Source: Escherichia phage HP3. Taken from it: a DNA stretch of 64,000 bases. The stretch lies in sequence record NC_041919.1; one strand, written 5' to 3'. Both the position numbers and the translations under genes were made by a program. The notes below the pieces were generated by a model. The model made no database searches and had not been told where the DNA came from. It was given only the letters and a program-made list of their open reading frames with translations. Positions 1,069-60,113 of this stretch are shown piece by piece (position 1 is the first letter of the stretch; the number at the start of each line of letters is the position of its first letter).

Positions 1069-1070
1069 TA

Positions 1071-1098
1071 GGGAGCCTTCGGGCTCCCTTTTTTTATT
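1071..1098 (+). terminator. rho-independent terminator (GGGAGCC-TTCG-GGCTCCC + T8)
   Basis: 7-bp GC stem with UUCG tetraloop followed by T-run, directly after stop at 1068. Confidence 0.75.
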
Positions 1099-1119
1099 TC
1101 AAAAATTTTTCACAAAATT

Positions 1120-1149
1120 GTTTACAAGCATAAAGCTTTATGGTACTAT
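1120..1149 (+). promoter_or_regulatory. T4-type early (sigma70) promoter
   Basis: GTTTAC -35 at 1120-1125, 18-nt spacer, TGGTACTAT -10 at 1144-1149, A/T-rich upstream tract. Confidence 0.7.
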
Positions 1150-1186
1150 ACAACTATCAACTGATACGGATTTGGAGAATAAAATG
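1142..1186 (+). repeat. 45-nt conserved leader cassette (copy 1 of 3)
   Basis: GGTACTATACAACTATCAACTGATACGGATTTGGAGAATAAAATG; near-identical at 28211-28258 and 56072-56116. Confidence 0.85.
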
Positions 1187-12996: not shown

Positions 12997-13212
12997 ATGT
13001 ATAAATTTCGTAAAGGTTTAGCTGATTTTCTTACAACTGTAACGTTCTTTCTGTTTATGGCAGTTGGAGCTATTTTCCTTATTCCTTTTATTGCTATATT
13101 TTTCGTGATTAGTTTGATTTCTCCAGAAAAGAGTTTATCTTCTAGCGAGTTCAATGAGCGTCTGGATAAAATTACTAACAAGCTGAATTCTGTTCTTGAT
13201 AAAAAGGCTTAA
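12997..13212 (+). CDS. hypothetical membrane protein (71 aa)
   Basis: ORF with central hydrophobic segment. Confidence 0.45.
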   Translation: MYKFRKGLADFLTTVTFFLFMAVGAIFLIPFIAIFFVISLISPEKSLSSSEFNERLDKITNKLNSVLDKKA

Positions 13213-13214
13213 TT

Positions 13215-13526
13215 ATGATTAGTTTTGAGCGGTATGTGGTAGAGAGTTGGAAGGGTTTTGATATGTTCGGTAATGACTATTATTTTTACGAATGTAGTCT
13301 AAATCCTAGTTTTTGGGCTGGACGTGAACGAGATCTCGAAGAAATTAATGCTCGTGCCGAATTGTTAGGTGAACTGCCTACGGTTTATTTTACCTTTGAT
13401 GCATCTGGATTTGTTATCCAGGTTTATTTTCCTGAAGAAAACTCTGGTGAGGATTCTGTTAACCCGCCATACTGGGCTTATCAAGGAATTATTTCTCGTG
13501 GAACAAAACTCGAACTTAAAGAATAA
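13215..13526 (+). CDS. hypothetical protein (103 aa)
   Basis: ORF; stop TAA abuts the glutaredoxin-like frame. Confidence 0.5.
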   Translation: MISFERYVVESWKGFDMFGNDYYFYECSLNPSFWAGRERDLEEINARAELLGELPTVYFTFDASGFVIQVYFPEENSGEDSVNPPYWAYQGIISRGTKLELKE

Positions 13527-14581: not shown

Positions 14582-14782
14582 ATGAATCCTGAATCTAAAT
14601 TATCGCAGCGAATTGCTGAAGAACGCGCCAAATTTTTCCAGAACATGAAACACAATGGTATTGAGGATGAAGTTTTTCTAAATTGGTTCTGGAATAATAA
14701 GTACACAGCATGTGAAGGAGCTTTGTCATTGTCAGTCGCAATGATGTACGAAGGCTGGAAGGGTGCCAAAAAGTTTAGCTAA
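14582..14782 (+). CDS. hypothetical protein (66 aa)
   Basis: ORF with TAAATG stop-start junction; terminator follows. Confidence 0.45.
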   Translation: MNPESKLSQRIAEERAKFFQNMKHNGIEDEVFLNWFWNNKYTACEGALSLSVAMMYEGWKGAKKFS

Positions 14783-14800
14783 GGGCTTCGGCCCTTTTTT
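14781..14800 (+). terminator. rho-independent terminator (GGGC-TTCG-GCCC + T6)
   Basis: UUCG hairpin followed by TTTTTT. Confidence 0.7.
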
Positions 14801-15380: not shown

Positions 15381-15646
15381 AATTTATTAATATTTCTATT
15401 ACTATTGAAAATTATGGCATTTTCTATGTTGACCAATACATGAAAATTTCATTTTTCCCAAATAAGACTGGTGTTGGATATTGGGAAAGCCATGTTTCTG
15501 AATTAAATGAAAGTGAATATGTTAGTACACATGAAAAGTTTTTAGACTTTTTATATCATGCTGATCTAACTAGTCATTATATAGATATTCATGAATTTAA
15601 AAAGATGATGGAGAAAGTATTCCAAGCATACTGCTTACTTAGATAA
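15377..15646 (+). CDS. hypothetical protein (89 aa)
   Basis: ORF with ATGA overlap. Confidence 0.5.
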   Translation: MKFINISITIENYGIFYVDQYMKISFFPNKTGVGYWESHVSELNESEYVSTHEKFLDFLYHADLTSHYIDIHEFKKMMEKVFQAYCLLR

Positions 15647-15724
15647 CTGATATCCTCTATGCTTTAAGATAGATCTTCAAATATTATGATATAATAGATC
15701 TATGAATTGAGCTAAGAGGTGAAA

Positions 15725-17194: not shown

Positions 17195-17218
17195 AAACCA
17201 AAACAAAGAGGATATTAA

Positions 17219-18421
17219 ATGAAAGTATGTATTTTTATGGCTCGAGGTCTTGAAGGTTGTGGTGTAACAAAATTCTCACTCGAGCAACGTGATTGGTTTA
17301 TTAAGAATGGTCATGAAGTAACTTTGGTTTATGCTAAAGATAAATCATTTACTCGTACAAGTTCTCATGACCACAAATCATTTTCAATTCCAGTTATTTT
17401 AGCTAAAGAATACGATAAAGCACTTAAGCTGGTAAATGATTGTGATATTCTAATTATTAATTCTGTTCCTGCTACTTCCGTTCAAGAAGCCACGATTAAT
17501 AACTATAAAAAACTTTTAGATAATATTAAACCTTCTATTCGTGTTGTAGTTTATCAGCATGATCATTCTGTTCTTTCTTTGCGTCGAAATTTGGGATTAG
17601 AAGAAACTGTTCGTCGAGCTGATGTTATTTTTAGTCATTCTGATAATGGCGATTTTAATAAAGTTCTGATGAAAGAATGGTATCCAGAAACTGTTTCTCT
17701 GTTTGATGATATTGAAGAAGCACCAACAGTATATAATTTTCAGCCTCCTATGGATATTGCGAAAGTTCGATCAACCTACTGGAAAGATGTTTCTGAAATT
17801 AACATGAATATCAATCGTTGGATTGGTCGTACGACTACATGGAAAGGTTTTTACCAGATGTTTGATTTTCACGAAAAATTCTTAAAACCTGCTGGTAAAT
17901 CCACTGTAATGGAAGGTCTTGAACGTTCCCCTGCTTTTATTGCAATTAAGGAAAAAGGTATTCCGTATGAATATTACGGTAATCGTGAGATCGATAAAAT
18001 GAATCTCACGCCGAATCAACCGGCACAAATCCTAGATTGTTATATTAATAGTGAAATGCTTGAACGAATGAGTAAATCTGGCTTTGGATATCAGTTGAGT
18101 AAACTTAACCAGAAATACTTACAACGCTCACTAGAATATACTCATCTTGAATTAGGTGCTTGCGGTACAATTCCTGTTTTCTGGAAATCTACTGGCGAAA
18201 ATTTAAAATTCCGTGTTGATAATACTCCTTTGACCTCGCATGATAGCGGTATCATTTGGTTTGATGAAAATGACATGGAATCAACATTCGAGCGTATTAA
18301 AGAACTGTCATCTGACCGAGCTCTTTATGACCGTGAGCGAGAAAAAGCATATGAATTTTTGTATCAGCATCAAGATTCAAGCTTCTGCTTTAAAGAACAG
18401 TTTGACATTATTACAAAATAA
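17219..18421 (+). CDS. agt: DNA alpha-glucosyltransferase
   Basis: 400 aa; sequence (MKVCIFMARGLEGCGVTKFSLEQRDWFIKNGHEVTLVY...) matches remembered T4 alpha-gt. Confidence 0.9.
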   Translation: MKVCIFMARGLEGCGVTKFSLEQRDWFIKNGHEVTLVYAKDKSFTRTSSHDHKSFSIPVILAKEYDKALKLVNDCDILIINSVPATSVQEATINNYKKLLDNIKPSIRVVVYQHDHSVLSLRRNLGLEETVRRADVIFSHSDNGDFNKVLMKEWYPETVSLFDDIEEAPTVYNFQPPMDIAKVRSTYWKDVSEINMNINRWIGRTTTWKGFYQMFDFHEKFLKPAGKSTVMEGLERSPAFIAIKEKGIPYEYYGNREIDKMNLTPNQPAQILDCYINSEMLERMSKSGFGYQLSKLNQKYLQRSLEYTHLELGACGTIPVFWKSTGENLKFRVDNTPLTSHDSGIIWFDENDMESTFERIKELSSDRALYDREREKAYEFLYQHQDSSFCFKEQFDIITK

Positions 18422-18422
18422 A

Positions 18423-18462
18423 GGGCTTCGGCCCTTTAGCTTTATACGGAGTTTGATATAAT
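18423..18462 (+). promoter_or_regulatory. UUCG hairpin fused to MotA-box middle promoter
   Basis: GGGC-TTCG-GCCC then TTTAGCTTTA (18435-18444), 12-nt spacer, TATAAT (18457-18462); same module at 49885-49925. Confidence 0.55.
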
Positions 18463-23131: not shown

Positions 23132-23146
23132 AGGGCTTCGGCCCTT
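23132..23146 (+). terminator. UUCG hairpin (GGGC-TTCG-GCCC) with short T tract
   Basis: immediately after gene 45 stop. Confidence 0.5.
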
Positions 23147-23179
23147 TATAATTTACACTAAAACTTGAATGAGGAAATT

Positions 23180-24139
23180 ATGATTACCGTAAATGAAAAA
23201 GAACACATTCTTGAACAGAAATATCGTCCATCTACTATCGATGAATGTATTCTTCCCGCCTTTGATAAAGAAACCTTTAAATCTATTACAAGTAAAGGTA
23301 AGATTCCACATATTATTCTTCATTCTCCTTCTCCAGGAACAGGTAAAACAACTGTAGCAAAAGCATTGTGTCATGATGTAAATGCTGATATGATGTTTGT
23401 GAATGGATCAGATTGTAAAATTGATTTCGTTCGCGGTCCTTTGACTAATTTTGCCAGCGCCGCTTCATTTGATGGTCGTCAAAAAGTAATCGTTATTGAT
23501 GAATTTGACCGCTCAGGATTAGCAGAGTCTCAGCGACATCTTCGTTCCTTTATGGAAGCTTATAGTTCAAACTGTAGTATTATTATTACTGCTAACAATA
23601 TTGATGGTATTATTAAACCACTTCAGTCACGCTGCCGAGTTATTACGTTCGGTCAACCGACCGATGAAGATAAAATTGAAATGATGAAGCAGATGATTCG
23701 TCGATTGACTGAAATCTGTAAGCATGAAGGAATTGCTATAGCTGATATGAAAGTTGTAGCAGCTTTGGTTAAAAAGAATTTTCCTGATTTTCGTAAAACT
23801 ATTGGCGAGCTCGATAGTTATTCATCTAAAGGTGTTTTGGATGCTGGTATTTTATCACTGGTTACTAACGATCGTGGTGCTATTGATGATGTTCTTGAGT
23901 CTCTCAAAAATAAAGATGTTAAACAACTCAGAGCTTTAGCACCAAAATATGCAGCTGATTATTCGTGGTTCGTAGGTAAACTTGCCGAAGAAATCTATTC
24001 ACGTGTAACTCCGCAGAGTATTATTCGTATGTACGAAATTGTCGGCGAAAATAATCAGTATCATGGTATTGCAGCTAATACTGAATTGCATTTAGCTTAT
24101 CTTTTCATTCAGTTAGCATGTGAAATGCAGTGGAAGTGA
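23180..24139 (+). CDS. 44: clamp-loader large subunit gp44 (AAA+)
   Basis: 319 aa from ATG 23180 ([17 protein letters not shown]); Walker [10 protein letters not shown]; GAGGAAA RBS. Confidence 0.95.
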
Positions 24140-24705: not shown

Positions 24706-25074
24706 ATGATTGAAATTACTCTTAAAAAACCTGAAGATTTTCTGAAAGTAAAAGAAACTTTGACTCGTATGGGAATTGCTAATAATAAAGATAAAGTTCT
24801 GTATCAGTCCTGTCATATTCTTCAGAAAAAAGGACTATACTATATCGTTCATTTTAAAGAAATGCTTCGTATGGATGGTCGCCAAGTTGAAATGACAGAA
24901 GAAGATGAAGTTCGTCGTGATTCGATTGCATGGCTGTTAGAAGATTGGGGACTGATTGAAATCGTTCCTGGTCAAAGAACTTTTATGAAAGATTTAACTA
25001 ATAATTTCCGAGTTATTTCTTTTAAACAAAAACATGAATGGAAACTCGTTCCTAAATATACGATTGGTAATTAA
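24706..25074 (+). CDS. regA: translational repressor RegA
   Basis: 122 aa; sequence matches remembered T4 RegA. Confidence 0.9.
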   Translation: MIEITLKKPEDFLKVKETLTRMGIANNKDKVLYQSCHILQKKGLYYIVHFKEMLRMDGRQVEMTEEDEVRRDSIAWLLEDWGLIEIVPGQRTFMKDLTNNFRVISFKQKHEWKLVPKYTIGN

Positions 25075-25075
25075 T

Positions 25076-25297
25076 ATGACTGCTATAACTCCGCAAGAAT
25101 ACATGGCGTCTCTTAAAGAAAAATATAATCTTTCTGCAACAGAAACACTTTTCGATTTACCAGAAAACCTTCAACTAAAATTTCAGGTAGAATTTCAAAA
25201 ATTAATTCACCCAGAACAAAAACACTTTACTGCAGTCGTTAAGTCAATTAATGCAGATGGAATGACAATTTTTCACCGACAAATAGTACTAATTTAA
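25076..25297 (+). CDS. hypothetical protein (73 aa)
   Basis: ATG 25076 (internal Met of track ORF 25034), TAATATG junction with regA. Confidence 0.45.
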   Translation: MTAITPQEYMASLKEKYNLSATETLFDLPENLQLKFQVEFQKLIHPEQKHFTAVVKSINADGMTIFHRQIVLI

Positions 25298-25301
25298 GCA
25301 A

Positions 25302-25320
25302 GGGGCTTCGGCCCCTTATT
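25302..25320 (+). terminator. UUCG hairpin (GGGGC-TTCG-GCCCC) with TTATTT
   Basis: follows ORF end at 25297. Confidence 0.55.
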
Positions 25321-28072: not shown

Positions 28073-28085
28073 TAGAATAAATCTA

Positions 28086-28106
28086 GGGACCTCCGGGTCC
28101 CTTTTT
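28086..28106 (+). terminator. rho-independent terminator (GGGACC-TCCG-GGTCCC + T5)
   Basis: hairpin plus T-run after gene 43. Confidence 0.7.
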
Positions 28107-28188
28107 CATACAAGTAATATAAATCTATACTTATGAAAAACAGATGATTCTGGACATTTAGAATTCCCTAAAAAATTTTCACAAAACT

Positions 28189-28218
28189 GTTTACATCTCT
28201 GTTCTTCCATGGTACTAT
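28189..28218 (+). promoter_or_regulatory. T4-type early promoter
   Basis: GTTTAC 28189-28194, TACTAT 28213-28218, A/T-rich upstream tract. Confidence 0.7.
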
Positions 28219-28258
28219 ACAACTATCAACTACTGATACGGATTTGGAGAATAAAATG
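28211..28258 (+). repeat. conserved leader cassette (copy 2 of 3)
   Basis: same as 1142-1186 with a 3-nt insertion; ends in ATG of the downstream ORF. Confidence 0.85.
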
Positions 28259-28492
28259 AAAATTGTTATGGGTTGCTTAGCAGTTTGTTTAGTTGCATTA
28301 GCAGCAGTTCCATTTGTTAGTGTTGAAAATGATACTCAACCTGTGATTGAATCTAGCACTGTTATTCACACTAATGGTAAAATATCAGTTAAAATTGATG
28401 ATAATCTTCATGTGAATACAAATGGATCTTTAGGTGTGCAAATGGGTAATACCTGCATAAGCACTACTGGAGTAATTACTACTTGTATTTGA
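28256..28492 (+). CDS. hypothetical secreted/membrane protein (78 aa)
   Basis: ATG 28256; N-terminal signal-like segment MKIVMGCLAVCLVALAAVPF. Confidence 0.5.
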   Translation: MKIVMGCLAVCLVALAAVPFVSVENDTQPVIESSTVIHTNGKISVKIDDNLHVNTNGSLGVQMGNTCISTTGVITTCI

Positions 28493-28502
28493 GGAAATTA
28501 TT

Positions 28503-28883
28503 ATGAAAATCGCTATTTTGGTTATTGCATTAGGTCTTACTGGTTGTGTAGCTCAAGGACCGGTAGTAAATCAGTCTGATGTAGGAAAAATTGTAAACTG
28601 TTCAAGCAAATTTTATAATCCTAATGTCAAGTGTTATAAAGAAGCTCCAAAACAGACAGTAGAACAAATGCAGGCGAATTTTGACGAGGCTATTCGTCCA
28701 GATGAATCTGCTCAAGCATATCGTAATTCGGATGTAATTACACGCGAAGAAAAAATTGAAAACTACTGCGCCGAGCTTTGGGCTAATTGGGCCAATAATT
28801 ACCAATGGCGTACTGGTAAAAATGCTCCGATGGAGTATGTAGTGAATTCTTATAATTCATGTGTAAAAAATTTGACTAAGTGA
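28503..28883 (+). CDS. putative lipoprotein (126 aa)
   Basis: signal peptide with lipobox LTGC; Cys-containing mature part. Confidence 0.55.
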   Translation: MKIAILVIALGLTGCVAQGPVVNQSDVGKIVNCSSKFYNPNVKCYKEAPKQTVEQMQANFDEAIRPDESAQAYRNSDVITREEKIENYCAELWANWANNYQWRTGKNAPMEYVVNSYNSCVKNLTK

Positions 28884-29295: not shown

Positions 29296-30036
29296 ATGAT
29301 TAGTGACTCTATGACAGTTGAAGAAATCCGTCTTCATTTGGGGCTTGCATTAAAAGAAAAAGATTTCGTAGTTGATAAAACTGGTGTTAAAACTATTGAA
29401 ATTATTGGCGCATCATTTGTAGCAGATGAACCGTTTATTTTTGGCGCTCTTAATGATGAATACATTCAGCGTGAACTTGAATGGTATAAATCTAAGAGTT
29501 TGTTTGTTAAAGATATTCCAGGTGAAACACCAAAGATTTGGCAGCAGGTAGCATCTTCTAAAGGCGAAATTAACTCGAATTATGGTTGGGCTATTTGGTC
29601 AGAAGATAACTATGCCCAGTATGATATGTGTTTAGCTGAACTTGGTCAAAATCCTGATTCTCGACGTGGTATCATGATTTATACTCGTCCATCTATGCAG
29701 TTTGACTACAATAAAGATGGTATGTCAGATTTCATGTGTACTAATACAGTACAGTACTTGATTCGTGATAAGAAAGTCAATGCGGTAGTAAGCATGCGCT
29801 CAAATGACGTGGTCTTCGGATTCCGTAATGATTATGCATGGCAAAAATACGTATTAGATAAATTAGTATCTGATTTGAATGCAGGCGATTCAACTCGTCA
29901 GTATAAAGCAGGTTCTATTATATGGAATGTTGGAAGTCTTCATGTATATTCTCGTCATTTTTATTTGGTTGATCATTGGTGGAATACTGGCGAAACTCAT
30001 ATTGTGAAAAAAGACTATAAAGGTGAGTGGAAATGA
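29296..30036 (+). CDS. 42: dCMP hydroxymethylase gp42
   Basis: 246 aa; thymidylate-synthase-like fold sequence matching remembered T4 gp42. Confidence 0.95.
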   Translation: MISDSMTVEEIRLHLGLALKEKDFVVDKTGVKTIEIIGASFVADEPFIFGALNDEYIQRELEWYKSKSLFVKDIPGETPKIWQQVASSKGEINSNYGWAIWSEDNYAQYDMCLAELGQNPDSRRGIMIYTRPSMQFDYNKDGMSDFMCTNTVQYLIRDKKVNAVVSMRSNDVVFGFRNDYAWQKYVLDKLVSDLNAGDSTRQYKAGSIIWNVGSLHVYSRHFYLVDHWWNTGETHIVKKDYKGEWK

Positions 30037-30875
30037 TTCAATTCGTAATTCCAAGTTATCAACGTGTCGGGGCAGTTTCTGCCCTTAATATGTTTCCGAC
30101 TGATTATGAACCCCATATTGTGGTGCGTGAACACGAAGAAAAAGCTTATTATGATGCTTATGGGTCTAGAGCTAAAATTGTAACTATTCCTGATGATGTT
30201 AATGGAATTGCCGGTACTCGTAAAGCAATTACTGATATGTATGCAGGTCAACGAATCTGGATGATTGATGATGATACTACTATTCGTATGAGTTCAATAC
30301 GAAAGAGAGACGATAAACGGCGTGTAGATAAAATTAATCAATTAACTCGTGAACAGTTCTATGAATTAATTCAATACGTTGAAGATGCCATGGATTGCGG
30401 GTATTATCACGGTCATGCTCGTCTACCAATTTTTAAAATTACTTCATCTTGGGGCAATTATCGTGAAAACTCATATGGATTCACGAATACATGGTATGAC
30501 CTCGGAAAACTTACGACAGAACAAATTGGGTATGGAAAAATTGATTTATGCGAAGATATGTATGCATTTCTCAATTTAATTAATCAAGGTTATCCGCATT
30601 TGGCCTTGTTCAAATATCTAGTTGTATCTGGAAAATCACACGCTCCCGGTGGGTGTAGTTCAATTCGTAGTAATTCTAAACATAATAGAGCGCTTGAGCA
30701 AATCAATAGAGAGTTTCCAGAGCAAGCTCGTTGGAAAACATCGAATATTGAAAAACGAAAATCGTTGGGTGAAGAAGACGAGCCATTAAAGGTTCTTCGC
30801 ATGTGTGTTTCGCGTAAAGAAAAATCAGAAGCATTTCATAAGTTTAATGCTATTCATCCAATAGCAGTTGATTAA
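30033..30875 (+). CDS. glycosyltransferase at the beta-gt locus (candidate beta-glucosyl-HMC-alpha-glucosyltransferase)
   Basis: 280 aa from ATG 30033 (ATGA overlap with gene 42); DxD-like WMIDDDTT motif; unrelated to remembered T4 beta-gt sequence (351 aa). Confidence 0.65.
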   Translation: MIQFVIPSYQRVGAVSALNMFPTDYEPHIVVREHEEKAYYDAYGSRAKIVTIPDDVNGIAGTRKAITDMYAGQRIWMIDDDTTIRMSSIRKRDDKRRVDKINQLTREQFYELIQYVEDAMDCGYYHGHARLPIFKITSSWGNYRENSYGFTNTWYDLGKLTTEQIGYGKIDLCEDMYAFLNLINQGYPHLALFKYLVVSGKSHAPGGCSSIRSNSKHNRALEQINREFPEQARWKTSNIEKRKSLGEEDEPLKVLRMCVSRKEKSEAFHKFNAIHPIAVD

Positions 30876-30899
30876 TGCCTAAATTTATTGTGTTATAAT
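30874..30899 (+). promoter_or_regulatory. possible middle promoter upstream of uvsX
   Basis: imperfect MotA box ATGCCTAAA (30875-30883), 10-nt spacer, TATAAT (30894-30899). Confidence 0.3.
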
Positions 30900-30952
30900 T
30901 ACTATATCTTTAACCAGTGAGGAAAATATAATGATGCCTATGGAAAAAATGA

Positions 30953-32134
30953 ATGTCTATTGCAGATTTAAAATCCCGTTTGATTAAAGCTTCCACTTCT
31001 AAAATGACTGCTGAACTGACTACATCTAAATTCTTTAATGAAAAGGATGTAATTCGTACAAAAATTCCAATGCTTAATATCGCTATTTCTGGTGCGATTG
31101 ATGGCGGTATGCAGTCTGGTTTAACTATTTTTGCAGGGCCTTCTAAACACTTTAAATCAAATATGTCTTTGACTATGGTTGCGGCATATTTGAACAAATA
31201 TCCTGACGCGGTTTGTCTATTCTATGATAGCGAATTTGGTATTACTCCAGCTTATTTGCGATCCATGGGAGTTGACCCGGAACGTGTAATTCATACGCCA
31301 ATTCAATCAGTTGAACAGCTGAAAATTGATATGGTGAATCAGCTTGAAGCTATTGAGCGTGGTGAAAAAGTTATTGTATTCATCGATTCAATTGGTAATA
31401 TGGCTTCTAAGAAAGAAACTGAAGATGCCTTGAATGAAAAATCTGTGGCAGATATGACTCGTGCTAAATCACTGAAGTCATTATTCCGTATCGTTACTCC
31501 TTATTTTAGCATTAAAAATATTCCATGCGTTGCGGTTAACCATACAATTGAAACAATTGAAATGTTTAGTAAAACCGTGATGACAGGTGGTACAGGCGTA
31601 ATGTATTCGGCTGATACCGTATTCATTATCGGTAAGCGTCAGATTAAAGATGGTTCTGATCTTCAGGGGTATCAATTTGTTCTAAATGTAGAAAAATCTC
31701 GTACCGTTAAAGAAAAAAGTAAATTCTTTATTGATGTTAAATTTGACGGTGGTATCGATCCTTATTCTGGATTGTTAGATATGGCTCTAGAATTAGGATT
31801 TGTAGTAAAACCTAAGAATGGTTGGTATGCTCGTGAATTTCTTGACGAAGAAACCGGCGAGATGATTCGCGAAGAAAAATCTTGGCGTGCAAAAGATACT
31901 AACTGCACTACATTCTGGGGTCCTTTATTTAAGCATCAACCATTCCGAGATGCTATTAAACGTGCTTATCAGTTAGGTGCTATTGATAGTAATGAAATTG
32001 TTGAAGCTGAAGTTGATGAATTGATTAACTCAAAGGTTGAAAAATTTAAATCTCCAGAAAGTAAAAGTAAATCAGCTGCTGATTTAGAAACTGACCTCGA
32101 ACAGTTAAGTGATATGGAAGAATTTAATGAATAA
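30953..32134 (+). CDS. uvsX: recombinase UvsX (RecA-like)
   Basis: 393 aa; Walker A GPSKHFKS; matches remembered T4 UvsX. Confidence 0.95.
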   Translation: MSIADLKSRLIKASTSKMTAELTTSKFFNEKDVIRTKIPMLNIAISGAIDGGMQSGLTIFAGPSKHFKSNMSLTMVAAYLNKYPDAVCLFYDSEFGITPAYLRSMGVDPERVIHTPIQSVEQLKIDMVNQLEAIERGEKVIVFIDSIGNMASKKETEDALNEKSVADMTRAKSLKSLFRIVTPYFSIKNIPCVAVNHTIETIEMFSKTVMTGGTGVMYSADTVFIIGKRQIKDGSDLQGYQFVLNVEKSRTVKEKSKFFIDVKFDGGIDPYSGLLDMALELGFVVKPKNGWYAREFLDEETGEMIREEKSWRAKDTNCTTFWGPLFKHQPFRDAIKRAYQLGAIDSNEIVEAEVDELINSKVEKFKSPESKSKSAADLETDLEQLSDMEEFNE

Positions 32135-36809: not shown

Positions 36810-36828
36810 ACAAATTTCATAAATTTGT
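36810..36828. repeat. perfect palindrome ACAAATTT-CAT-AAATTTGT
   Basis: 8-bp inverted repeat with 3-nt centre, abutting the -35 of the promoter at 36827. Confidence 0.9.
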
Positions 36829-36856
36829 TTACTTTCTCAGCTTGTTATGGTATTAT
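36827..36856 (+). promoter_or_regulatory. T4-type early promoter
   Basis: GTTTAC 36827-36832, TGGTATTAT -10 at 36851-36856. Confidence 0.65.
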
Positions 36857-36881
36857 AAAATAAATTGCTGAGGATGATATA

Positions 36882-38221
<1,340 letters not shown>

Positions 38222-38281: not shown

Positions 38282-38800
38282 ATGGCTTACTTTAACGAAT
38301 GTAGTCAACTGATCGAAGGCGCTGATAAAGCTCAAAATGAATACTGGGATATTCTCGGTGATGAAAAAGACCCGCTGCAAGTTATGCTTGATATGCAGAA
38401 ATCTTTGCAGGTTCGTTTAGCTAAAGATAAACCTGAATATAACCGTCATCCTGATGATTTGGCTACTGCAGGCGAAGTTGTCGATTGGCTGCGTAATCAG
38501 AAAGATTACATTGATGATGAATTCCGCGAACTATTGACTTCTCTTGGTGGTATGAGCAATGGTGAAAAAGATGCATCTGCTGTATGGAAGCCTTGGAAGT
38601 CGCAGCATGGTGAACGTCGTGAAACTCTAATTACTGATTTGTCACCACAAGACCAATTGGAAATTAAATTCGAAATGATTGATATTCTTCATTTCGTTCT
38701 GAACATGTTCCAAGGTCTCGGTCTTACGGCTGAAGAAATCTTTAAACTTTATTATCTGAAAAATGCTGAAAACTTCGCTCGTCAAGACCGAGGTTATTAA
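38282..38800 (+). CDS. 56: dCTPase/dUTPase gp56 (MazG-like)
   Basis: 172 aa from ATG 38282; position next to dam. Confidence 0.8.
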   Translation: MAYFNECSQLIEGADKAQNEYWDILGDEKDPLQVMLDMQKSLQVRLAKDKPEYNRHPDDLATAGEVVDWLRNQKDYIDDEFRELLTSLGGMSNGEKDASAVWKPWKSQHGERRETLITDLSPQDQLEIKFEMIDILHFVLNMFQGLGLTAEEIFKLYYLKNAENFARQDRGY

Positions 38801-39000
38801 TGGCTCGTTTAAATAAACGCCAGCTTAAGAAAGCCCACAAGAAACGTATTGACCAGCTATTTAAAAATTATGACAAGGAGCTCACATACGAGCTCCTATC
38901 TAATCAGCTCCACAAAGCTTACACAATTAAAACTGGACATATACAATTAGGTAAGGTGCATGAAGAAGCCTTAAAATTAATTATAGAGCATTCAAAATGA
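38800..39000 (+). CDS. hypothetical basic protein (66 aa)
   Basis: ORF with TAATG overlap with gene 56. Confidence 0.5.
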   Translation: MARLNKRQLKKAHKKRIDQLFKNYDKELTYELLSNQLHKAYTIKTGHIQLGKVHEEALKLIIEHSK

Positions 39001-39020
39001 AATTTGATTTTTATGCATGG

Positions 39021-39046
39021 CAAAAAGCCGGGAGACCGGCTTTTTG
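39021..39046 (+). terminator. rho-independent terminator
   Basis: AAAAAGCCGG-GAGA-CCGGCTTTTT, symmetric A/T flanks. Confidence 0.6.
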
Positions 39047-39184
39047 AGCATTTGGTTCTGATGGATATAATATTAGAGCTCATTGGAAGTTTAATGCTCC
39101 AGCCGATTATTCTCCGGTAATTATTAACGGTGATGTTGTTATATTAACTAAAATTGGGTATTTTAACGTTCCGCAAGAATTTAT

Positions 39185-39192
39185 TATAAATA
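39185..39192 (+). promoter_or_regulatory. late promoter (TATAAATA) for soc
   Basis: exact TATAAATA about 30 nt upstream of soc ATG. Confidence 0.7.
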
Positions 39193-39467: not shown

Positions 39468-39473
39468 ATTCAA

Positions 39474-39497
39474 GGACTCCTTCGGGAGTCCTTTTTT
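39474..39497 (+). terminator. rho-independent terminator (GGACTCC-TTCG-GGAGTCC + T6)
   Basis: 7-bp stem, UUCG loop, T-run. Confidence 0.75.
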
Positions 39498-39507
39498 CAT
39501 TTTACCG

Positions 39508-39538
39508 GTTTACTTTCCAAAATGAGTATGGTATAATA
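39508..39538 (+). promoter_or_regulatory. T4-type early promoter
   Basis: GTTTAC 39508-39513, TGGTATAAT -10 at 39533-39538. Confidence 0.65.
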
Positions 39539-49245: not shown

Positions 49246-49617
49246 ATGTTTAAAATCGGTAAGAAATATCGCATTCGCGAAGGTGAAGAAAAGAAATATC
49301 TATTTTCTGCTATTTATAGGAATGGTTCTATTAGTAATGTAATATCTACAAGCGAATTTATCGTTGAAGATATGAAAGGTAATAACGTTACAATGATTAG
49401 TACAGCATCTGGAAATGACGGAAAAATTCTTCACAGTTTTCAGAGTAATGTTCTAATATATGATGAAGAATTTAATCTATTCGAAGAAGTTCCCGAAGAT
49501 TTTGATTTTGAATGCACTATCACTATGAAATCTGGTGACCCTCTTTCTTTTACAGTTAAAGATGAAAGAAGCCGCTTGAGAGTTATTAGTCTTCTTCAAG
49601 CCATTAAATTTAAGTGA
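49246..49617 (+). CDS. hypothetical protein (123 aa)
   Basis: ATG 49246 inside track ORF 49240. Confidence 0.5.
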   Translation: MFKIGKKYRIREGEEKKYLFSAIYRNGSISNVISTSEFIVEDMKGNNVTMISTASGNDGKILHSFQSNVLIYDEEFNLFEEVPEDFDFECTITMKSGDPLSFTVKDERSRLRVISLLQAIKFK

Positions 49618-49622
49618 AAATT

Positions 49623-49884: not shown

Positions 49885-49925
49885 AGGCCTTCGGGCCTTT
49901 AGCTTTATGATTACCGGAGTATAAT
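49885..49925 (+). promoter_or_regulatory. UUCG hairpin fused to MotA-box middle promoter (gene 39)
   Basis: AGGCC-TTCG-GGCCT then TTTAGCTTTA (49898-49907), 12-nt spacer, TATAAT (49920-49925). Confidence 0.55.
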
Positions 49926-49952: not shown

Positions 49953-51770
49953 ATGATTAAGAATGAAATTAAAATTCTGAGCGATATTGAACATATCAAA
50001 AAGCGTAGCGGCATGTATATTGGCTCTTCTGCTAATGAAATGCATGAGCGCTTTCTGTTTGGTAAATGGGAAAGTGTTCAGTATGTACCTGGTCTTGTTA
50101 AGCTTATTGATGAAATTATCGATAACTCAGTAGATGAAGGTATTCGTACTAAGTTTAAATTCGCAAATAAAATTAATGTTACTATTAAAAACAATCAAGT
50201 AACAGTTGAAGATAACGGTCGCGGTATTCCACAAGCGATGGTCAAAACACCTACCGGTGAAGAAATTCCTGGTCCTGTTGCTGCATGGACTATTCCAAAA
50301 GCAGGTGGTAACTTTGGTGATGATAAAGAACGTGTCACCGGTGGTATGAATGGTGTTGGTTCTAGTTTGACAAACATTTTTTCTGTGATGTTTGTCGGTG
50401 AAACTGGTGATGGTCAAAATAATATTGTAGTTCGTTGTTCAAATGGCATGGAAAATAAATCATGGGAAGATATTCCTGGAAAATGGAAAGGAACTCGTGT
50501 TACTTTCATTCCTGATTTTATGTCATTTGAAACTAATGAGCTGTCTCAGGTTTATCTTGACATTACACTGGACCGTCTCCAGACACTCGCAGTAGTTTAT
50601 CCTGATATTCAATTTACCTTTAATGGTAAAAAGGTTCAGGGCAATTTTAAGAAATATGCACGCCAATATGATGAGCATGCTATTGTTCAAGAACAAGAAA
50701 ATTGTTCTATTGCGGTTGGTCGTTCACCGGATGGTTTTCGTCAATTAACATACGTTAATAACATTCATACTAAGAATGGTGGCCATCACATTGACTGTGT
50801 TATGGATGATATTTGTGAAGACCTTATTCCACAAATCAAACGTAAGTTCAAAATTGATGTGACTAAAGCACGCGTTAAAGAATGTTTGACTATCGTTATG
50901 TTTGTCCGTGATATGAAAAACATGCGATTTGATTCTCAAACTAAAGAGCGTTTGACTTCTCCATTTGGTGAAATCCGTAGTCATATTCAACTTGATGCTA
51001 AAAAGATTTCACGTGCTATTCTAAATAATGAAGCAATTCTAATGCCGATTATTGAAGCTGCTTTGGCTCGTAAATTGGCGGCAGAAAAAGCAGCAGAAAC
51101 TAAAGCAGCTAAAAAGGCTTCTAAAGCTAAGGTTCATAAACATATCAAAGCGAATCTTTGTGGTAAAGATGCTGACACTACTCTTTTCTTGACTGAGGGT
51201 GATTCGGCTATCGGATATCTTATTGATGTTCGTGATAAAGAACTTCATGGTGGTTATCCATTGCGCGGTAAAGTTCTCAACAGTTGGGGTATGTCATATG
51301 CTGATATGCTTAAAAACAAAGAATTGTTTGATATTTGCGCAATCACTGGATTAGTTCTCGGTGAAAAAGCTGAAAACTTGAATTATCATAATATCGCTAT
51401 TATGACTGATGCTGACCATGATGGTCTAGGAAGCATTTATCCTTCTCTGCTCGGGTTTTTTAGTAATTGGCCAGAACTGTTTGAGCAAGGAAGAATTCGT
51501 TTTGTCAAAACTCCTGTAATCATCGCTCAGGTCGGTAAAAAACAAGAATGGTTTTATACAGTCGCTGAATATGAGAGTGCTAAAGATGCTCTACCTAAAC
51601 ATAGCATCCGTTATATTAAAGGACTTGGCTCTTTGGAAAAATCTGAATATCGTGAGATGATTCAAAATCCAGTATATGATGTTGTTAAACTTCCTGAGAA
51701 CTGGAAAGAGCTTTTTGAAATGCTCATGGGAGATAATGCTGACCTTCGTAAAGAATGGATGAGCCAGTAG
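49953..51770 (+). CDS. 39: DNA topoisomerase II large subunit gp39 (GyrB-like), unsplit
   Basis: 605 aa from ATG 49953; GHKL ATPase and Toprim (EGDSA) motifs in one frame. Confidence 0.95.
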   Translation: MIKNEIKILSDIEHIKKRSGMYIGSSANEMHERFLFGKWESVQYVPGLVKLIDEIIDNSVDEGIRTKFKFANKINVTIKNNQVTVEDNGRGIPQAMVKTPTGEEIPGPVAAWTIPKAGGNFGDDKERVTGGMNGVGSSLTNIFSVMFVGETGDGQNNIVVRCSNGMENKSWEDIPGKWKGTRVTFIPDFMSFETNELSQVYLDITLDRLQTLAVVYPDIQFTFNGKKVQGNFKKYARQYDEHAIVQEQENCSIAVGRSPDGFRQLTYVNNIHTKNGGHHIDCVMDDICEDLIPQIKRKFKIDVTKARVKECLTIVMFVRDMKNMRFDSQTKERLTSPFGEIRSHIQLDAKKISRAILNNEAILMPIIEAALARKLAAEKAAETKAAKKASKAKVHKHIKANLCGKDADTTLFLTEGDSAIGYLIDVRDKELHGGYPLRGKVLNSWGMSYADMLKNKELFDICAITGLVLGEKAENLNYHNIAIMTDADHDGLGSIYPSLLGFFSNWPELFEQGRIRFVKTPVIIAQVGKKQEWFYTVAEYESAKDALPKHSIRYIKGLGSLEKSEYREMIQNPVYDVVKLPENWKELFEMLMGDNADLRKEWMSQ

Positions 51771-51824: not shown

Positions 51825-52028
51825 ATGAAATCATATAAAGTAAATTTAGAACTTTTTGATAAAGCAGTTCATCGAGAATATAGAATCATTCAACGCTTTT
51901 TCGATATGGGAGAAGCCGAAGAATTTAAAAACCGCTTTAAAGATATTAGAGATAAAATTCAATCCGACACTGCAACTAAAGATGAATTACTAGAAGTTGC
52001 TGAAGTTATTAAGCGTAATATGAATTAA
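51825..52028 (+). CDS. hypothetical protein (67 aa)
   Basis: ORF between gene 39 and rIIA. Confidence 0.5.
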
Positions 52029-52038
52029 TGAGGAAATT

Positions 52039-54216
52039 ATGATTATCACCACTGAAAAAGAAACAATTCTTGGCAATGGTTCTAAATCAAAAGCATTTAG
52101 CATCACAGCATCTCCTAAAGTATTTAAAATTCTGTCATCTGATTTGTATACAAACAAGATTCGTGCAGTAGTCCGTGAATTAATTACTAATATGATTGAT
52201 GCCCATGCACTTAATGGAAATCCTGAAAAATTTATCATACAAGTTCCAGGACGATTAGATCCGCGATTTGTTTGTCGAGATTTTGGTCCGGGTATGAGTG
52301 ATTTTGATATTCAGGGTGATGATAATTCTCCTGGGTTATATAATTCATACTTCAGTTCATCTAAGGCTGAATCTAATGACTTTATTGGCGGGTTTGGTTT
52401 AGGTTCTAAATCTCCGTTTAGTTATACTGATACATTTAGTATTACTTCGTATCATAAAGGTGAAATTCGTGGTTATGTAGCTTACATGGATGGTGATGGT
52501 CCACAGATTAAACCTACATTCGTAAAAGAAATGGGTCCAGATGATAAAACTGGTATTGAAATCGTAGTTCCAGTTGAAGAAAAAGACTTTAGAAACTTTG
52601 CTTATGAAGTTTCTTATATCATGCGACCATTCAAAGATTTGGCTATCATTAATGGTCTTGACCGCGAAATTGATTATTTTCCGGATTTTGATGACTATTA
52701 CGGTGTAAATCCAGAAAGATACTGGCCTGATCGTGGTGGATTATATGCTATCTATGGCGGTATTGTTTATCCTATCGATGGTGTTATTAGAGACCGTAAC
52801 TGGCTAAGCATTCGCAATGAAGTGAATTACATTAAGTTTCCAATGGGTTCACTTGATATTGCTCCATCTCGCGAGGCTCTTTCACTGGATGATCGTACTC
52901 GTAAAAATATTATTGAACGAGTTAAAGAACTCAGTGAGAAAGCATTTAATGAAGATGTAAAACGATTTAAAGAATCCACATCTCCCCGTCATACATATCG
53001 TGAATTGATGAAGATGGGATATTCTGCTCGAGATTATATGATTAGTAATTCAGTCAAATTTACGACTAAAAATCTGTCATATAAGAAGATGCAAAGCATG
53101 TTTGAACCTGATAGTAAGTTATGCAATGCAGGAGTTGTGTATGAAGTAAATCTTGACCCTCGACTGAAGCGCATTAAGCAAAGTCATGAAACTTCAGCCG
53201 TTGCATCAAGTTATCGTCTGTTTGGTATTAATGCAACAAAAATTAATATCGTTATTGATAATATTAAAAATCGTGTTAATATTGTCCGTGGATTAGCACA
53301 TGCGTTAGATGATAGTGAATTTAATAACACTTTGAATATTCATCACAACGAACGCCTTCTGTTTATTAATCCAGAAGTAGAATCGCAGATTGATTTGCTT
53401 CCTGATATTATGGCGATGTTTGAAAGTGATGAAGTTAACATTCATTATTTGTCAGAAATCGAAGCTTTAGTTAAAAGCTATATTCCAAAGGTAGTTAAAA
53501 GTAAAGCTCCTCGTCCTAAAGCTGCTACAGCATTTAAGTTTGAAATTAAAGACGGGCGCTGGGAAAAAGAGGAATTATTTACGCTCACATCAGAAGCAGA
53601 TGAAATTACTGGGTATGTAGCGTATATGCATCGTTCTGATATTTTCTCTATGGATGGTACTACATCTCTTTGTCATCCATCTATGAATATTTTGATTCGT
53701 ATGGCTAATCTTATTGGCATTAATGAGTTTTATGTTATTCGTCCGCTTTTGCAGAAAAAGGTAAAAGAACTCGGTCAGTGCCAATGTATTTTTGAAACTC
53801 TGCGTGATTTATATGTAGATGCTTTTGATGATGTAGATTATGATAAGTACGTAGGTTATTCAAGTTCAGCTCAACGATATATTGATAAAATTATCAAGTA
53901 TCCTGAACTAGATTTTATGATGAAGTACTTCAGTACAGATGAAGTTTCTGAAGAATATACACGACTCGCTAATATAGTTAGTTCATTGCGCGGTGTATAT
54001 TTTAATGGTGGAAAAGATACCATCGGTCATGACATCTGGACAGTAACTAATCTCTTTGATGAATTATCACGTAATGCTTCAAAAAATAGTGATAAAATGG
54101 TTGCTGAGTTTACCAAGAAATTCCGTATTGTTTCCGACTTCATCGGTTATCGTAACTCTTTGAGTGATGATGAAGTTTCCCAAATCGCTAAAACTATGAA
54201 GGCCCTTGCGGCCTAA
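52039..54216 (+). CDS. rIIA: rIIA protein
   Basis: 725 aa; GHKL-like ATPase N-terminus; size and position fit T4 rIIA. Confidence 0.95.
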
Positions 54217-54227
54217 TAAGGAAAATT

Positions 54228-55166
54228 ATGTACAATATTAAATGCCTGACCAAAAACGAACAAGCTGAAATTGTTAAGCTGTATTCAAGTGGTAATTACA
54301 CCCAACAGGAATTGGCTGATTGGCAAGGTGTATCGGTTGACACAATCCGTCGTGTTTTGAAAAATGCTGAAGAAGCTAAACGCTCTAAAGTTACTATTAG
54401 CGGTGATATTACAGTTAAAGTTAATAGCGATGTAGCTATTGCTCCAGTTGCTAAATCTGACATTATTTGGAATGCATCTAAAAAATTCATTTCAATTACT
54501 GTTGACGGTGTAACTTATAACGCAACTCCTAATACTCATTCAAACTTCCAGGAAATTCTTAATCTGCTTGTAGCGGATAAGTTGGAAGAAGCGGCACAAA
54601 AAATTAATGTTCGTCGCGCTGTTGAAAAATATATTTCTGGTGATGTTCGAATTGAAGGCGGAAGCTTGTTCTATCAAAATATCGAATTACGGTCTGGTCT
54701 GGTTGATCGTATTCTCGATTCGATGGAAAAAGGTGAAAACTTTGAATTTTATTTTCCGTTCTTGGAAAATCTGCTGGAAAACCCAAGCCAAAAAGCGGTA
54801 TCTCGACTCTTTGATTTCTTGGTAGCAAATGATATTGAAATTACAGAAGATGGTTACTTCTATGCTTGGAAAGTAGTTCGTGACAACTACTTTGACTGTC
54901 ACTCAAACACCTTTGATAACAGTCCGGGTAAAGTAGTTAAAATGCCACGTACTCGTGTGAATGACGATGATACACAAACTTGTTCTCGTGGTCTGCATGT
55001 GTGTTCTAAATCTTATATTCGTCACTTTGGCAGTTCAACTAGTCGAGTTGTAAAAGTTAAAGTACATCCGCGTGATGTAGTATCAATTCCGATTGATTAC
55101 AACGATGCTAAAATGCGTACCTGCCAATACGAAGTAGTTGAAGACGTTACTGAACAATTTAAATAA
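54228..55166 (+). CDS. rIIB: rIIB protein
   Basis: 312 aa immediately downstream of rIIA. Confidence 0.95.
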   Translation: MYNIKCLTKNEQAEIVKLYSSGNYTQQELADWQGVSVDTIRRVLKNAEEAKRSKVTISGDITVKVNSDVAIAPVAKSDIIWNASKKFISITVDGVTYNATPNTHSNFQEILNLLVADKLEEAAQKINVRRAVEKYISGDVRIEGGSLFYQNIELRSGLVDRILDSMEKGENFEFYFPFLENLLENPSQKAVSRLFDFLVANDIEITEDGYFYAWKVVRDNYFDCHSNTFDNSPGKVVKMPRTRVNDDDTQTCSRGLHVCSKSYIRHFGSSTSRVVKVKVHPRDVVSIPIDYNDAKMRTCQYEVVEDVTEQFK

Positions 55167-55178
55167 GGGCTTCGGCCC
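55167..55178 (+). other. UUCG hairpin (GGGC-TTCG-GCCC) without T-run
   Basis: immediately after rIIB stop. Confidence 0.5.
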
Positions 55179-55194
55179 TTAACTAAGGAAAATT

Positions 55195-55389: not shown

Positions 55390-55394
55390 AATAA

Positions 55395-55415
55395 GGGCTT
55401 CGGCCCTTTTGTTTT
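55395..55415 (+). terminator. rho-independent terminator (GGGC-TTCG-GCCC + TTTTGTTTT)
   Basis: hairpin plus U-run. Confidence 0.7.
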
Positions 55416-56033: not shown

Positions 56034-56049
56034 AAAATTTCACAAAATG

Positions 56050-56079
56050 GTTTACATACCACAAGGACCGTGGTACTAT
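56050..56079 (+). promoter_or_regulatory. T4-type early promoter
   Basis: GTTTAC 56050-56055, TACTAT 56074-56079. Confidence 0.7.
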
Positions 56080-56116
56080 ACAACTATCAACTGATACGGA
56101 TTTGGAGAGTAAAATG
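56072..56116 (+). repeat. conserved leader cassette (copy 3 of 3)
   Basis: 44/45 identical to 1142-1186, including RBS and ATG. Confidence 0.85.
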
Positions 56117-59645: not shown

Positions 59646-59650
59646 TTTTA

Positions 59651-59680
59651 GGGAGAGCCGAGGCTCTCCCTTTTTTATTT
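59651..59680 (+). terminator. rho-independent terminator (GGGAGAGCC-GA-GGCTCTCCC + T6)
   Basis: 9-bp stem plus T-run. Confidence 0.75.
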
Positions 59681-59701
59681 CAAAAATTTTTTCACAAAAC
59701 G

Positions 59702-59731
59702 GTTTACAACCAAAGCATACTGTGGTACTAT
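59702..59731 (+). promoter_or_regulatory. T4-type early promoter
   Basis: GTTTAC 59702-59707, TACTAT 59726-59731. Confidence 0.7.
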
Positions 59732-59780
59732 ACAACTATCAAATAAATGAACTGAAACAAACAACCCGGAGATACAAAAA

Positions 59781-60008
59781 ATGAAATTTAAAATCGAAAA
59801 CGAAATCGTTAAAGCTAAAAATGCTCTGACTGCTAACAAACTGGTTGTAGATGGTATTGAATATGATATCTGTGGAGTTCGTGAAGAAAAACCTGGTGTT
59901 CTGACTTTCTTCACAATGATTTTTAAATTTAAAGGTGACACAGAATTCAAACAGTTTGATTTTGCCCATGAAGACGAAATCGAAGTTCGTAATCTGAACA
60001 TTAAGTAA
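59781..60008 (+). CDS. hypothetical protein (75 aa)
   Basis: ORF after CCGGAGATAC. Confidence 0.5.
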   Translation: MKFKIENEIVKAKNALTANKLVVDGIEYDICGVREEKPGVLTFFTMIFKFKGDTEFKQFDFAHEDEIEVRNLNIK

Positions 60009-60047
60009 GTACTTTATTAGAGCTCTTGAAAAAGAGTGCAAAAAAGT

Positions 60048-60076
60048 GTTTACTTCTGCTTTAAACATGATACTAT
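60048..60076 (+). promoter_or_regulatory. T4-type early promoter (motA)
   Basis: GTTTAC 60048-60053, TACTAT 60071-60076. Confidence 0.65.
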
Positions 60077-60113
60077 AGACCTATCAAATAAATGAACTGA
60101 AACGGAGATTAAA

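Follow-up and report, generated by a model that had tools for sequence, protein, structure and literature searches.

Two segments of about 90 nucleotides in the genome of Escherichia phage HP3 (NC_041919.1) look alike, each with a terminator hairpin followed by a promoter. They lie 58 kb apart in the stretch of 64,000 nucleotides analysed here (the window), and an earlier note had read them as one module present in duplicate. Are the two segments copies of each other, independent solutions to the same need, or members of a larger set, and what might such a unit do for the phage?

The 8 kb at either end of the window were 100% identical to Escherichia phage HP3.1/HP3.2 and 94-99% identical to hundreds of Tequatrovirus genomes. 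By BLAST, the window is colinear with T4 (NC_000866) as the reverse complement of the T4 record, and covers the T4 span from nrdC.11 (~56.4 kb) through 55, 43, 41, 39, rIIA and rIIB to 52, motA, asiA and t (~160.2 kb). The T4 early and middle genes are thus encoded on the + strand of the window. No match to Rfam was obtained for the entire window at the gathering threshold.

Both segments were present close to where the earlier note had placed them. The module at site A occupies 1070-1160, between nrdC.11 and nrdC.10, and the module at site B occupies 59650-59742, downstream of motA.1 (Table 1). Site B ends at 59742 and not at 59740; it is 2 nt longer than had been noted because its stem is longer. 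The two modules share one layout, in which a stop codon is followed by a GC hairpin and a T-run, after which come an A/T-rich UP element, GTTTAC (-36 to -31), 15 nt of spacer, TGGTACTAT and the start region with CTATCAA. Both are intergenic, and extend between the stop codon at 1066-1068 and the ATG at 1184 for A, and between the stop codon at 59643-59645 and the ATG at 59781 for B.

Table 1. Features of the two modules, their surroundings and related members of the promoter family in the window
Feature	Coordinates	Strand	Basis or remark
nrdC.11 homologue, nucleotidyltransferase, 337 aa	55..1068	+	phrog_388, E 7e-137; colinear with T4 nrdC.11
Site A intrinsic terminator, C(UUCG)G tetraloop, 7 T	1070..1095	+	terminator scan, RNA fold
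Site A UP-element region ATTTCAAAAATTTTTCACAAAATT, -60 to -37	1096..1119	+	sequence; family consensus aAaaAnntttcAnAaAntn directly 5' of GTTTAC
Site A core promoter: GTTTAC, 15-nt spacer, TGG, TACTAT	1120..1149	+	pattern search, promoter scan, PWM 62.4
Site A start region and leader	1150..1183	+	predicted +1 A1156, conserved CTATCAA, leader module CTGATACGGATTTGGAG (1161-1177)
nrdC.10 homologue, 322 aa	1184..2152	+	phrog_1250, E 1e-166; colinear with T4 nrdC.10
Member with the 20-mer and leader module of site A	28171..28258	+	terminator-like hairpin 28085-28102, 86 nt upstream
Second composite type: C(UUCG)G hairpin and T-run 14 nt 5' of GTTTAC	39472..39537	+	near-twin at HP3.2 130690
Best partner of site A, UP element to start codon	56032..56119	+	84% over 88 nt, 38-nt exact run
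motA.1 homologue, 49 aa	59496..59645	+	phrog_3487; T4 annotation; stop codon 59643-59645
Site B intrinsic terminator, 9-bp stem, CGAG loop, 6 T	59650..59676	+	terminator scan, RNA fold
Site B UP-element region ATTTCAAAAATTTTTTCACAAAACG	59677..59701	+	sequence, alignment, family matrix
Site B core promoter: GTTTAC, 15-nt spacer, TGG, TACTAT	59702..59731	+	pattern search, promoter scan, PWM 61.9
Left copy of 36-nt direct repeat (TGn/-10, start region, leader)	59723..59758	+	33/36 identical to 60068-60103
75-aa ORF, phrog_10955, function unknown	59781..60008	+	between module B and motA-proximal promoter
Second early promoter: GTTTAC, 14-nt spacer, TGATACTAT; right copy of 36-nt repeat	60048..60103	+	no strong terminator

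At site A the hairpin begins 2 nt after the stop codon of the nrdC.11 homologue (1066-1068). It reads AGGGAGCC-UUCG-GGCUCCCU at 1070-1089 and forms 8 bp, 6 of them GC (-17.5 kcal/mol, z -4.3); the T-run at 1089-1095 is followed by ATTTC AAAAATTTTTCACAAAATT. The hairpin of site B, AGGGAGAGC-CGAG-GCUCUCCCU at 59650-59671, forms 9 bp, again with 6 GC (-19.0 kcal/mol, z -5.3), and after its T-run comes ATTTC AAAAATTTTTTCACAAAACG. The UUCG-type loop of the earlier note is found at A; the loop at B is CGAG. The distance from the end of the stem to GTTTAC (1120-1125 at A, 59702-59707 at B) is exactly 30 nt at both sites. A 20-mer of site A, TGGTACTATACAACTATCAA (1141-1160), recurs at site B at 59723-59742.

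The promoter part at both sites carries GTTTAC at -36 to -31, which together with an A-rich upstream region is a hallmark of T4 early promoters (Nolan et al. 2006, PMC1524935). Since GTTTAC occupies -36 to -31 (PMC1524935), transcription is predicted to start at A1156 and A59738. The extended -10 element TGG TACTAT lies at a spacing of 17 bp from TTTACA at A and B, with the TG flagged at both. Directly 5' of GTTTAC stands AAAAATTTTT(T)CACAAAA, an A/T-rich UP element, at A and B alike. The UP regions of the two sites fit 13-14 of the 14 specified positions of the E. coli UP consensus, as reportedly given by Estrem (1998). Both promoters face genes on the early-gene strand, A being ahead of nrdC.10 and B ahead of the 75-aa ORF and motA. 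GGAG Shine-Dalgarno sequences stand at the end of both leaders. That of site A (1174-1177) is contained in GGAGAATAAAA, which matches the RegB strong-site consensus GGAGRAYARAA (consensus as in PMC3014915) and is a candidate RegB site. The 17-mer of this leader occurs in three exact copies in the window. The leaders, when folded, were no more structured than the background (z +0.6 and +1.6).

Both modules are carried by T4 at the same gene junctions, and orthologues are present in T2, YUEEL01, KAW1E185 and BGP as well. The terminator of site A has the same sequence in T4, YUEEL01 and KAW1E185, and its hairpin counterpart is labelled as a terminator in the record NC_054922.1. The stem of site B is the same in T4 and T2, and vB_Eco_BGP differs in the loop only. 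The core promoter of site B is orthologous to the T4 promoter ahead of motA.

How would such a unit act? A GC stem of at least 5 bp, a short loop and an immediate T-run, which together mark an intrinsic terminator, are found at A (T7) and at B (T6), and, as the minus strand lacks a T-run, they are unidirectional. The proposed course of events draws on the sequence anatomy, on orthology with T4 and on published T4 work. Coming from early promoters upstream, the sigma-70 RNA polymerase of the host would meet the GC hairpin and U-run after the stop codon of nrdC.11 or motA.1 and would mostly terminate there; the hairpin may also shield the 3' end of the upstream mRNA. About 60 nt downstream, a new transcript would begin from a very strong promoter, with the predicted +1 at A1156 or A59738, and all four elements would be used, namely UP (by the alpha C-terminal domains), the GTTTAC -35, TGn and the -10 TACTAT. 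The short leader would end in the GGAG Shine-Dalgarno, a candidate RegB cleavage site, ahead of the next early gene. A review calls the T4 early promoters 'uber' UP/-35/TGn/-10 promoters, which have additional conserved positions and win out over those of the host (Hinton 2010, PMC2988021). We infer terminator efficiency and promoter strength at A and B from their sequence; a literature search for T4 transcript-end mapping returned nothing usable. The proposal that a terminator is followed here by a promoter fits the anatomy, the T4 orthologues and the published T4 early promoters (PMC2988021, PMC1524935). A and B are very probably members of the Tequatrovirus early-promoter family fused to a terminator that closes the preceding gene, an arrangement of the promoter-early stem-loop (PeSL) type.

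The hairpins could instead be chiefly RNA-stability or processing elements that protect 3' ends, with transcription reading through and the promoters adding to it. C(UUCG)G hairpins that have no T-run are indeed frequent between the genes of the window (AAGGGC-UUCG-GCCCUU, for example, in 5-7 copies), and in T4 much of the expression of downstream genes comes from extended early transcripts (PMC2988021). At A and B, however, an unbroken run of 6-7 T comes right after a stable GC stem, the classical signature of an intrinsic terminator, and in phage phi1 a PeSL stem-loop lowered the expression of a reporter to about the same extent as rrnB T1 (PMC2839356). A role mainly in RNA stability is thus unlikely.

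The terminator-promoter units of A and B were then placed among the early promoters of the genome. The pattern GTTTAC-N13-19-TGNTANNNT gave 17 matches in the window, all on the + strand, where 0.46 were expected, and a weight matrix built from these 17 strict sites found ~21 sites on the + strand and none on the - strand. The exact 20-mer is present in 5 copies (1141, 2580, 28210, 56071 and 59723), with 0 expected. As these counts far exceed expectation, chance is excluded. The gapped pattern GTTTAC-N15-20-TATACAAC, whose spacing does not fit the family, had no match in the window. Elsewhere in the HP3.2 genome at least 9 more strong members were found, and their direction of transcription is again the same. 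Only a minority of the window promoters, about 5 of the 21, have a terminator-like hairpin within 100 nt. The likeness of A and B is thus real, and the two belong to a family of ~21 in the window rather than forming a two-copy duplication.

A third module of the A/B type lies just 3' of gene 32, outside the window, and has the same 30-nt geometry. Its hairpin GGGGACC-CTAGA-GGTCCCC is followed by TTTTTTATTTCAAAAATTTTTCATAAAACG-GTTTAC and TGGTACTATACAACTATC, and it is 77-78% identical to A and to B alike. These three modules (type I) have perfect stems with three different sequences, a pattern that would be expected if the structure of the hairpin, and not its sequence, matters. A second composite type, in two copies, has CUCC-UUCG-GGAG, then TTTTTTCATTTTACCG, then GTTTAC, in a geometry of 14-15 nt.

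To what extent are A and B alike beyond the promoter consensus? Aligned with MAFFT, they had a mean column identity of 84% over 115 nt, and global alignment from -52 to +41 gave 80-82% identity. Over the whole module the pair was the best of the 136 pairs formed by the 17 strict members of the window (mean 56%, sd 6%). The likeness is therefore above plain consensus similarity, as pairwise alignment should reveal if the two segments were more than independent matches to a consensus. The pair also ranked first of the 136 for the hairpin and T-run part and for the UP part; in the core, spacer and leader it ranked just 10th to 21st. The longest exact run common to A and B is 21 nt. The resemblance is moreover a mosaic. 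Site A is 84% identical to 56032-56119 over 88 nt, including an exact run of 38 nt, and 3' of the -10 element its best partner is not B but 56050 (97% in +30 to +60), and also 28189. The partner of B in this region is the promoter at 60048.

Comparison with other phage records revealed that ORFs come and go at both junctions. At site B, a 345-bp unit with the 75-aa ORF is bounded by the 36-nt direct repeat (59723-59758 and 60068-60103; 33 of 36 positions identical). T4 and T2, whose sequences were read, have no 75-aa ORF and a single promoter directly ahead of motA. In HP3, the promoter at 60048 is the one predicted to drive motA (60114-60749). The 345-bp unit was found in 126 of the 712 phage records that matched; most of the others at this site, T4, T2 and AR1 included, align in two pieces (~463 bp vs 805). 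In vB_Eco_BGP the slot at B holds a different 71-aa ORF, followed by the same motA-proximal promoter. Loss of the 345-bp unit would leave the predicted junction TGGTACTATACAACTATCAAATAAATGAACTGAAACGGAG before motA.

The slot at site A is 'empty' in T4 and HP3. In YUEEL01 module A is separated from a second early promoter by a 480-bp cassette that holds two ORFs (49 aa; one annotated DUF4031) and has a 26-nt repeat at its edges (TGGTACTATACAACTATCAAAACAAA and TGATACTATTACCCTATCAAAACAAA). This cassette was found in 137 of 556 records (YUEEL01 and 136 others). At site A of KAW1E185 and others, a 66-aa ORF has a degenerate promoter after it, in a cassette of ~260 bp. The family of this 66-aa ORF is widespread, with 146 records by tblastn. 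All four combinations of the site A and site B cassettes exist: G3F7 has both, SG1 that of A, HP3 that of B and T4 neither, so that recombination or repeated gain and loss is required. By pairwise comparison, the site B ORF of BGP and the site A ORF of KAW1E185 are distant homologues (34% identity, E 5e-8). These differences between genomes show gain, loss or exchange of ORF cassettes precisely at A and at B, with repeats of the -10, start and leader region at the borders.

Could the two modules have arisen by functional convergence alone, from independent terminators and independently optimised promoters that share no descent and have no linker role? Most of the conserved columns fall on known RNA polymerase contacts (UP, -35, TGn and -10), no two of the three type-I modules have the same stem, and terminators made of CTCCC, a T-run and ATTT occur in many unrelated viral contigs. 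A scan of IMG/VR for CTCCCTTTTTT(N)ATTTYAAAA returned 90 stretches, nearly all of them unrelated terminators, and one T4-like contig, twice. Yet the identity of A and B reaches positions for which no contact is known (ATTTC, the discriminator ACAACT and +1 to +5), whole leaders recur at distant sites (the 38-nt exact run of A and 56050; the 17-mer three times), and promoter and leader repeats bound the cassette indels at both sites. Convergence as the entire explanation is therefore decidedly unlikely.

The earlier note had also suggested that such repeats provide homology for recombination at distant sites. The polymorphic cassettes at A and B, with their borders of promoter and leader repeats, speak for this, though not for exchange between these two copies in cis. 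A crossover of A with B would delete 58.6 kb including genes 43, 41, 44, 45, 62, 39 and 52; because this interval holds essential replication genes the product would not be viable, and exchanges would be local or between co-infecting genomes. We infer that recombination between promoter copies may have caused the cassette indels. A unit of 60-90 nt that recurs before many small early genes would act as a portable linker. The exact homology among the copies is short, 20-38 nt. After TATCAA, the leaders of empty and filled alleles differ (CTGATACGG... vs AACAAATG...), so that the empty alleles are not simple crossover or deletion products of the filled ones, and replacements have also occurred. 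Over the window as a whole, in a crude count, 4 of 17 breaks of colinearity with T4 lay 100 bp or less from an early promoter, against ~2 expected, which is not significant. Indels and promoters are both confined to intergenic DNA. The repeats flanking other breaks relative to T4 are weak, or are Shine-Dalgarno/start-codon rather than promoter repeats.

A more specific proposal is that both junctions are dedicated landing pads at which small ORFs arrive recurrently. The invariant start region (C/T)TATCAA would then be favoured for crossover or processing by a particular pathway of exchange, and would not just be where conservation of the promoter stops; such a pathway may involve, for example, PeSL mini-circles or transcription-linked breaks. 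At least three alleles exist per site, every one diverging right after TATCAA, and a related small-ORF family occupies A in one phage and B in another. This proposal is highly doubtful.

The relation of A to B by descent was addressed by comparing orthologues with paralogues, a comparison for concerted evolution that rests on the four T4/HP3 sequences, used in place of the IMG/VR set. Between the T4 and HP3 orthologues, identity is 95% for A and 99% for B, against 74-79% for the A-B paralogues in every combination of the four. After a recent duplication, paralogues should be at least as identical as orthologues, which is not what A and B display; the comparison gives no sign of recent duplication or of gene conversion between A and B. 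A recent segmental duplication, or continuing gene conversion between both loci, is thus extremely improbable and appears already largely refuted: it would account for the first rank of the pair over the whole module and for the common 30-nt spacing and the ATTTC linker, the latter having no obvious function, but not for these identities, nor for the unlike stems, loops and -35/-10 spacers, an exact run no longer than 21 nt, a post-gene-32 module as near to A as to B, or the different partners beyond +5 (56050 and 28189 for A, 60048 for B). The two modules would then be old paralogues or convergent.

The fused terminator-promoter unit preferred here is a real, above-chance and ordinary component of T4-like phages that has been described before, under the name of PeSL. 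PeSLs were defined in RB49/phi1 (Arbiol et al. 2010, PMC2839356). In phi1, reporters revealed terminator activity of the PeSL211/210 stem-loop and strong promoter activity of PeSL206/205, and recombination between PeSLs was proposed to shuffle ORF cassettes with mini-circles as intermediates (PMC2839356); these activities and the mini-circles pertain to phi1/RB49 elements only (PMC2839356). For the PST/T4 pair, a later paper gives TTTACW-N17-TAYWAT with a stem-loop just 5' of the promoter (Comeau et al. 2014, PMC4122927), which is exactly the arrangement of A and B. The words nrdC and motA are absent from the text of that paper, figures aside (PMC4122927). The view that insulated units punctuate early transcription and supply homology for recombination, as the earlier note had it, is in effect the published PeSL hypothesis (PMC2839356, PMC4122927).

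Further features agree with the PeSL type. A stem-loop terminator and a strong early promoter form a composite, the hairpins of A and B ending 30 nt before GTTTAC. Like PeSLs, the two are intergenic, reaching from the upstream stop codon to the downstream Shine-Dalgarno sequence and ATG. PeSLs have many copies per genome, mostly in plastic regions and ahead of small, non-essential ORFs whose function is unknown, here ~21 in the window and at least 9 elsewhere, and adjoin indels that separate close relatives, here with three alleles each at A and B. The differences touch nothing essential: the stems GGGAGCC and GGGAGAGCC fit only loosely the 'AGNA-loop-TCNT' given for PST/T4, and a nearby terminator-like hairpin accompanies only about 5 of the 21 window promoters. 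With T4 early promoters the units share GTTTAC at -36 to -31, TGn with the -10 element, an A-rich UP element at about -40 to -60, a position 5' of early genes and conserved positions beyond the sigma-70 elements, and A and B are direct orthologues of T4 sequences. The promoter part shows no difference; the terminator lies outside the promoter definition. C(UUCG)G tetraloop hairpins were reportedly described in T4 intercistronic regions by Tuerk and co-workers in 1988. The loop of site A is of this kind, as are many more between the genes of the window, with CGAG at site B, but that hairpin class is silent on an adjoining promoter. Lambdoid morons and integron cassettes are similar in that small accessory ORFs with their own promoter and/or terminator land between resident genes (PMC2839356, PMC1524935). 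Morons differ in that their insertion is thought to occur by illegitimate recombination, often with deviating GC content. Integrons differ in having an integrase and attC sites; at A and B the homology would presumably come from the repeated regulatory unit itself, and a dedicated recombinase is not known. What is mildly new here is descriptive, namely the two subtypes of composite unit, a type-I trio rather than a pair, the modular leaders and the two multi-allelic slots.

For annotation, the units indicate where early transcription units are bounded and where small early genes truly start; the start of nrdC.10, for example, is at 1184, and not at the upstream ATG at 1016. HP3 is a candidate for therapy, and the units would offer natural insulated expression slots for phage engineering, while also being likely hot spots for the gain and loss of cassettes. 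The current understanding of these elements is left unchanged, and two well-documented polymorphic examples are added to the published model.

The terminator-promoter modules at sites A (between nrdC.11 and nrdC.10) and B (after motA.1) have a counterpart outside the window, a third module of this type located immediately after gene 32. Its stem, GGGGACC/GGTCCCC, is unlike those of A and B, and its 30-nt geometry is identical to theirs; overall identity to the two modules is 77-78%. In a second composite subtype, just 14-15 nt separate GTTTAC from a preceding C(UUCG)G hairpin with its T-run (TTTTTTCATTTTACCG-GTTTAC). At site A, a mechanical ORF call (1016-2152) begins at ATG 1016 and reads across the terminator and promoter. 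The true nrdC.10 start is ATG 1184, behind GGAG at 1174-1177.

The stretch from the inserted ORF after site B to the motA-proximal promoter contains a small hairpin, GAGCTCTT-GAAA-AAGAGCTC. In the related phage vB_Eco_BGP this hairpin is perfect; in HP3 it is degraded (AGAGTGC). It may be the terminator remnant of a formerly complete promoter-early stem-loop (PeSL) cassette. Separately, the motA-proximal promoter (window 60043-60088) showed a 46-bp match of 93.6% identity to Salmonella phage SHP1 (KY979109.1), a record of 62.8 kb compared with ~165-170 kb for Tequatrovirus genome records. No annotated feature lies beneath the match in that record.

Coordinates of the repeated elements, insertions and breaks (window positions unless stated)
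Feature	Position	Strand	Remark
Leader module	1161-1177; 28233-28249; 56091-56107		exact repeat
Third A/B-type module	OP978391.1 about 51440-51580 (L097:1440-1580)	(-)	outside window
Second composite subtype	39472-39537; OP978391.1 about 130690 (-)		two near-twin copies in genome
Small hairpin upstream of motA-proximal promoter	L099:540-600; window 60015-60047
Borders of 247-bp ORF insertion	28246-28269; 28493-28516		repeat of SD + ATGAAAAT start region
Breaks with extra or different T4 sequence	10510; 17203-17228; 30018-30965; 38763-39185; 51370-51435		examples
Small window insertions vs T4	13197-13522; 15391-15652; 25074-25294; 36814-37355; 49248-49621; 56119-56345
AAGGGC-UUCG-GCCCUU hairpins	14781-14796; 18419-18438; 23133-23146; 25303-25316; 49886-49899; 55164-55181; 55393-55408
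46-nt repeat	23168-23213; 52027-52072		83% identical

Relative to T4, a 247-bp ORF insertion is present just 3′ of the early promoter at 28189, flanked by the SD/start-region repeat and not by promoter copies. At other breaks the additional or different sequence is that of T4 and comprises, by T4 coordinates, the nrdD intron with I-TevII, mobB, the b-gt/segA region, segF, and mobA with 60.1. Several small insertions of 220-540 bp are present in the window instead.

Two further kinds of repeat were seen. The AAGGGC-UUCG-GCCCUU hairpins between genes of the window constitute repeat families D3 and D4; the majority are without a T-run, and some are readable as minus-strand terminators. They are probably members of a hairpin class, C(UUCG)G, that has been familiar from T4 for a long time. 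Two unrelated genes share the 46-nt repeat, which in each takes in the Shine-Dalgarno sequence, the start codon and about the first 10 codons; their position and N-terminal sequence identify these genes as the homologues of gene 44 and rIIA. A common translational-operator sequence, perhaps a RegA target, is a possible reason for this repeat.

Repetition is also found downstream of the early promoters. The 17-nt leader module CTGATACGGATTTGGAG occurs in three exact copies in the window (0.11 expected), each directly 3′ of the conserved CTATCAA start region of an early promoter, and a variant, CTACTGATACAGAATTACGGAG, is present in the T4 motA leader. Site B and the promoter at 60048 are followed by leaders of a second type, A(T/A)(A/C)AA(T)G..., as are the cassette-flanking promoters of the related phages YUEEL01 and KAW1E185. 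Since two leader types recur behind different early promoters, these sequence comparisons indicate that modularity extends to the leaders and is not confined to the promoters.
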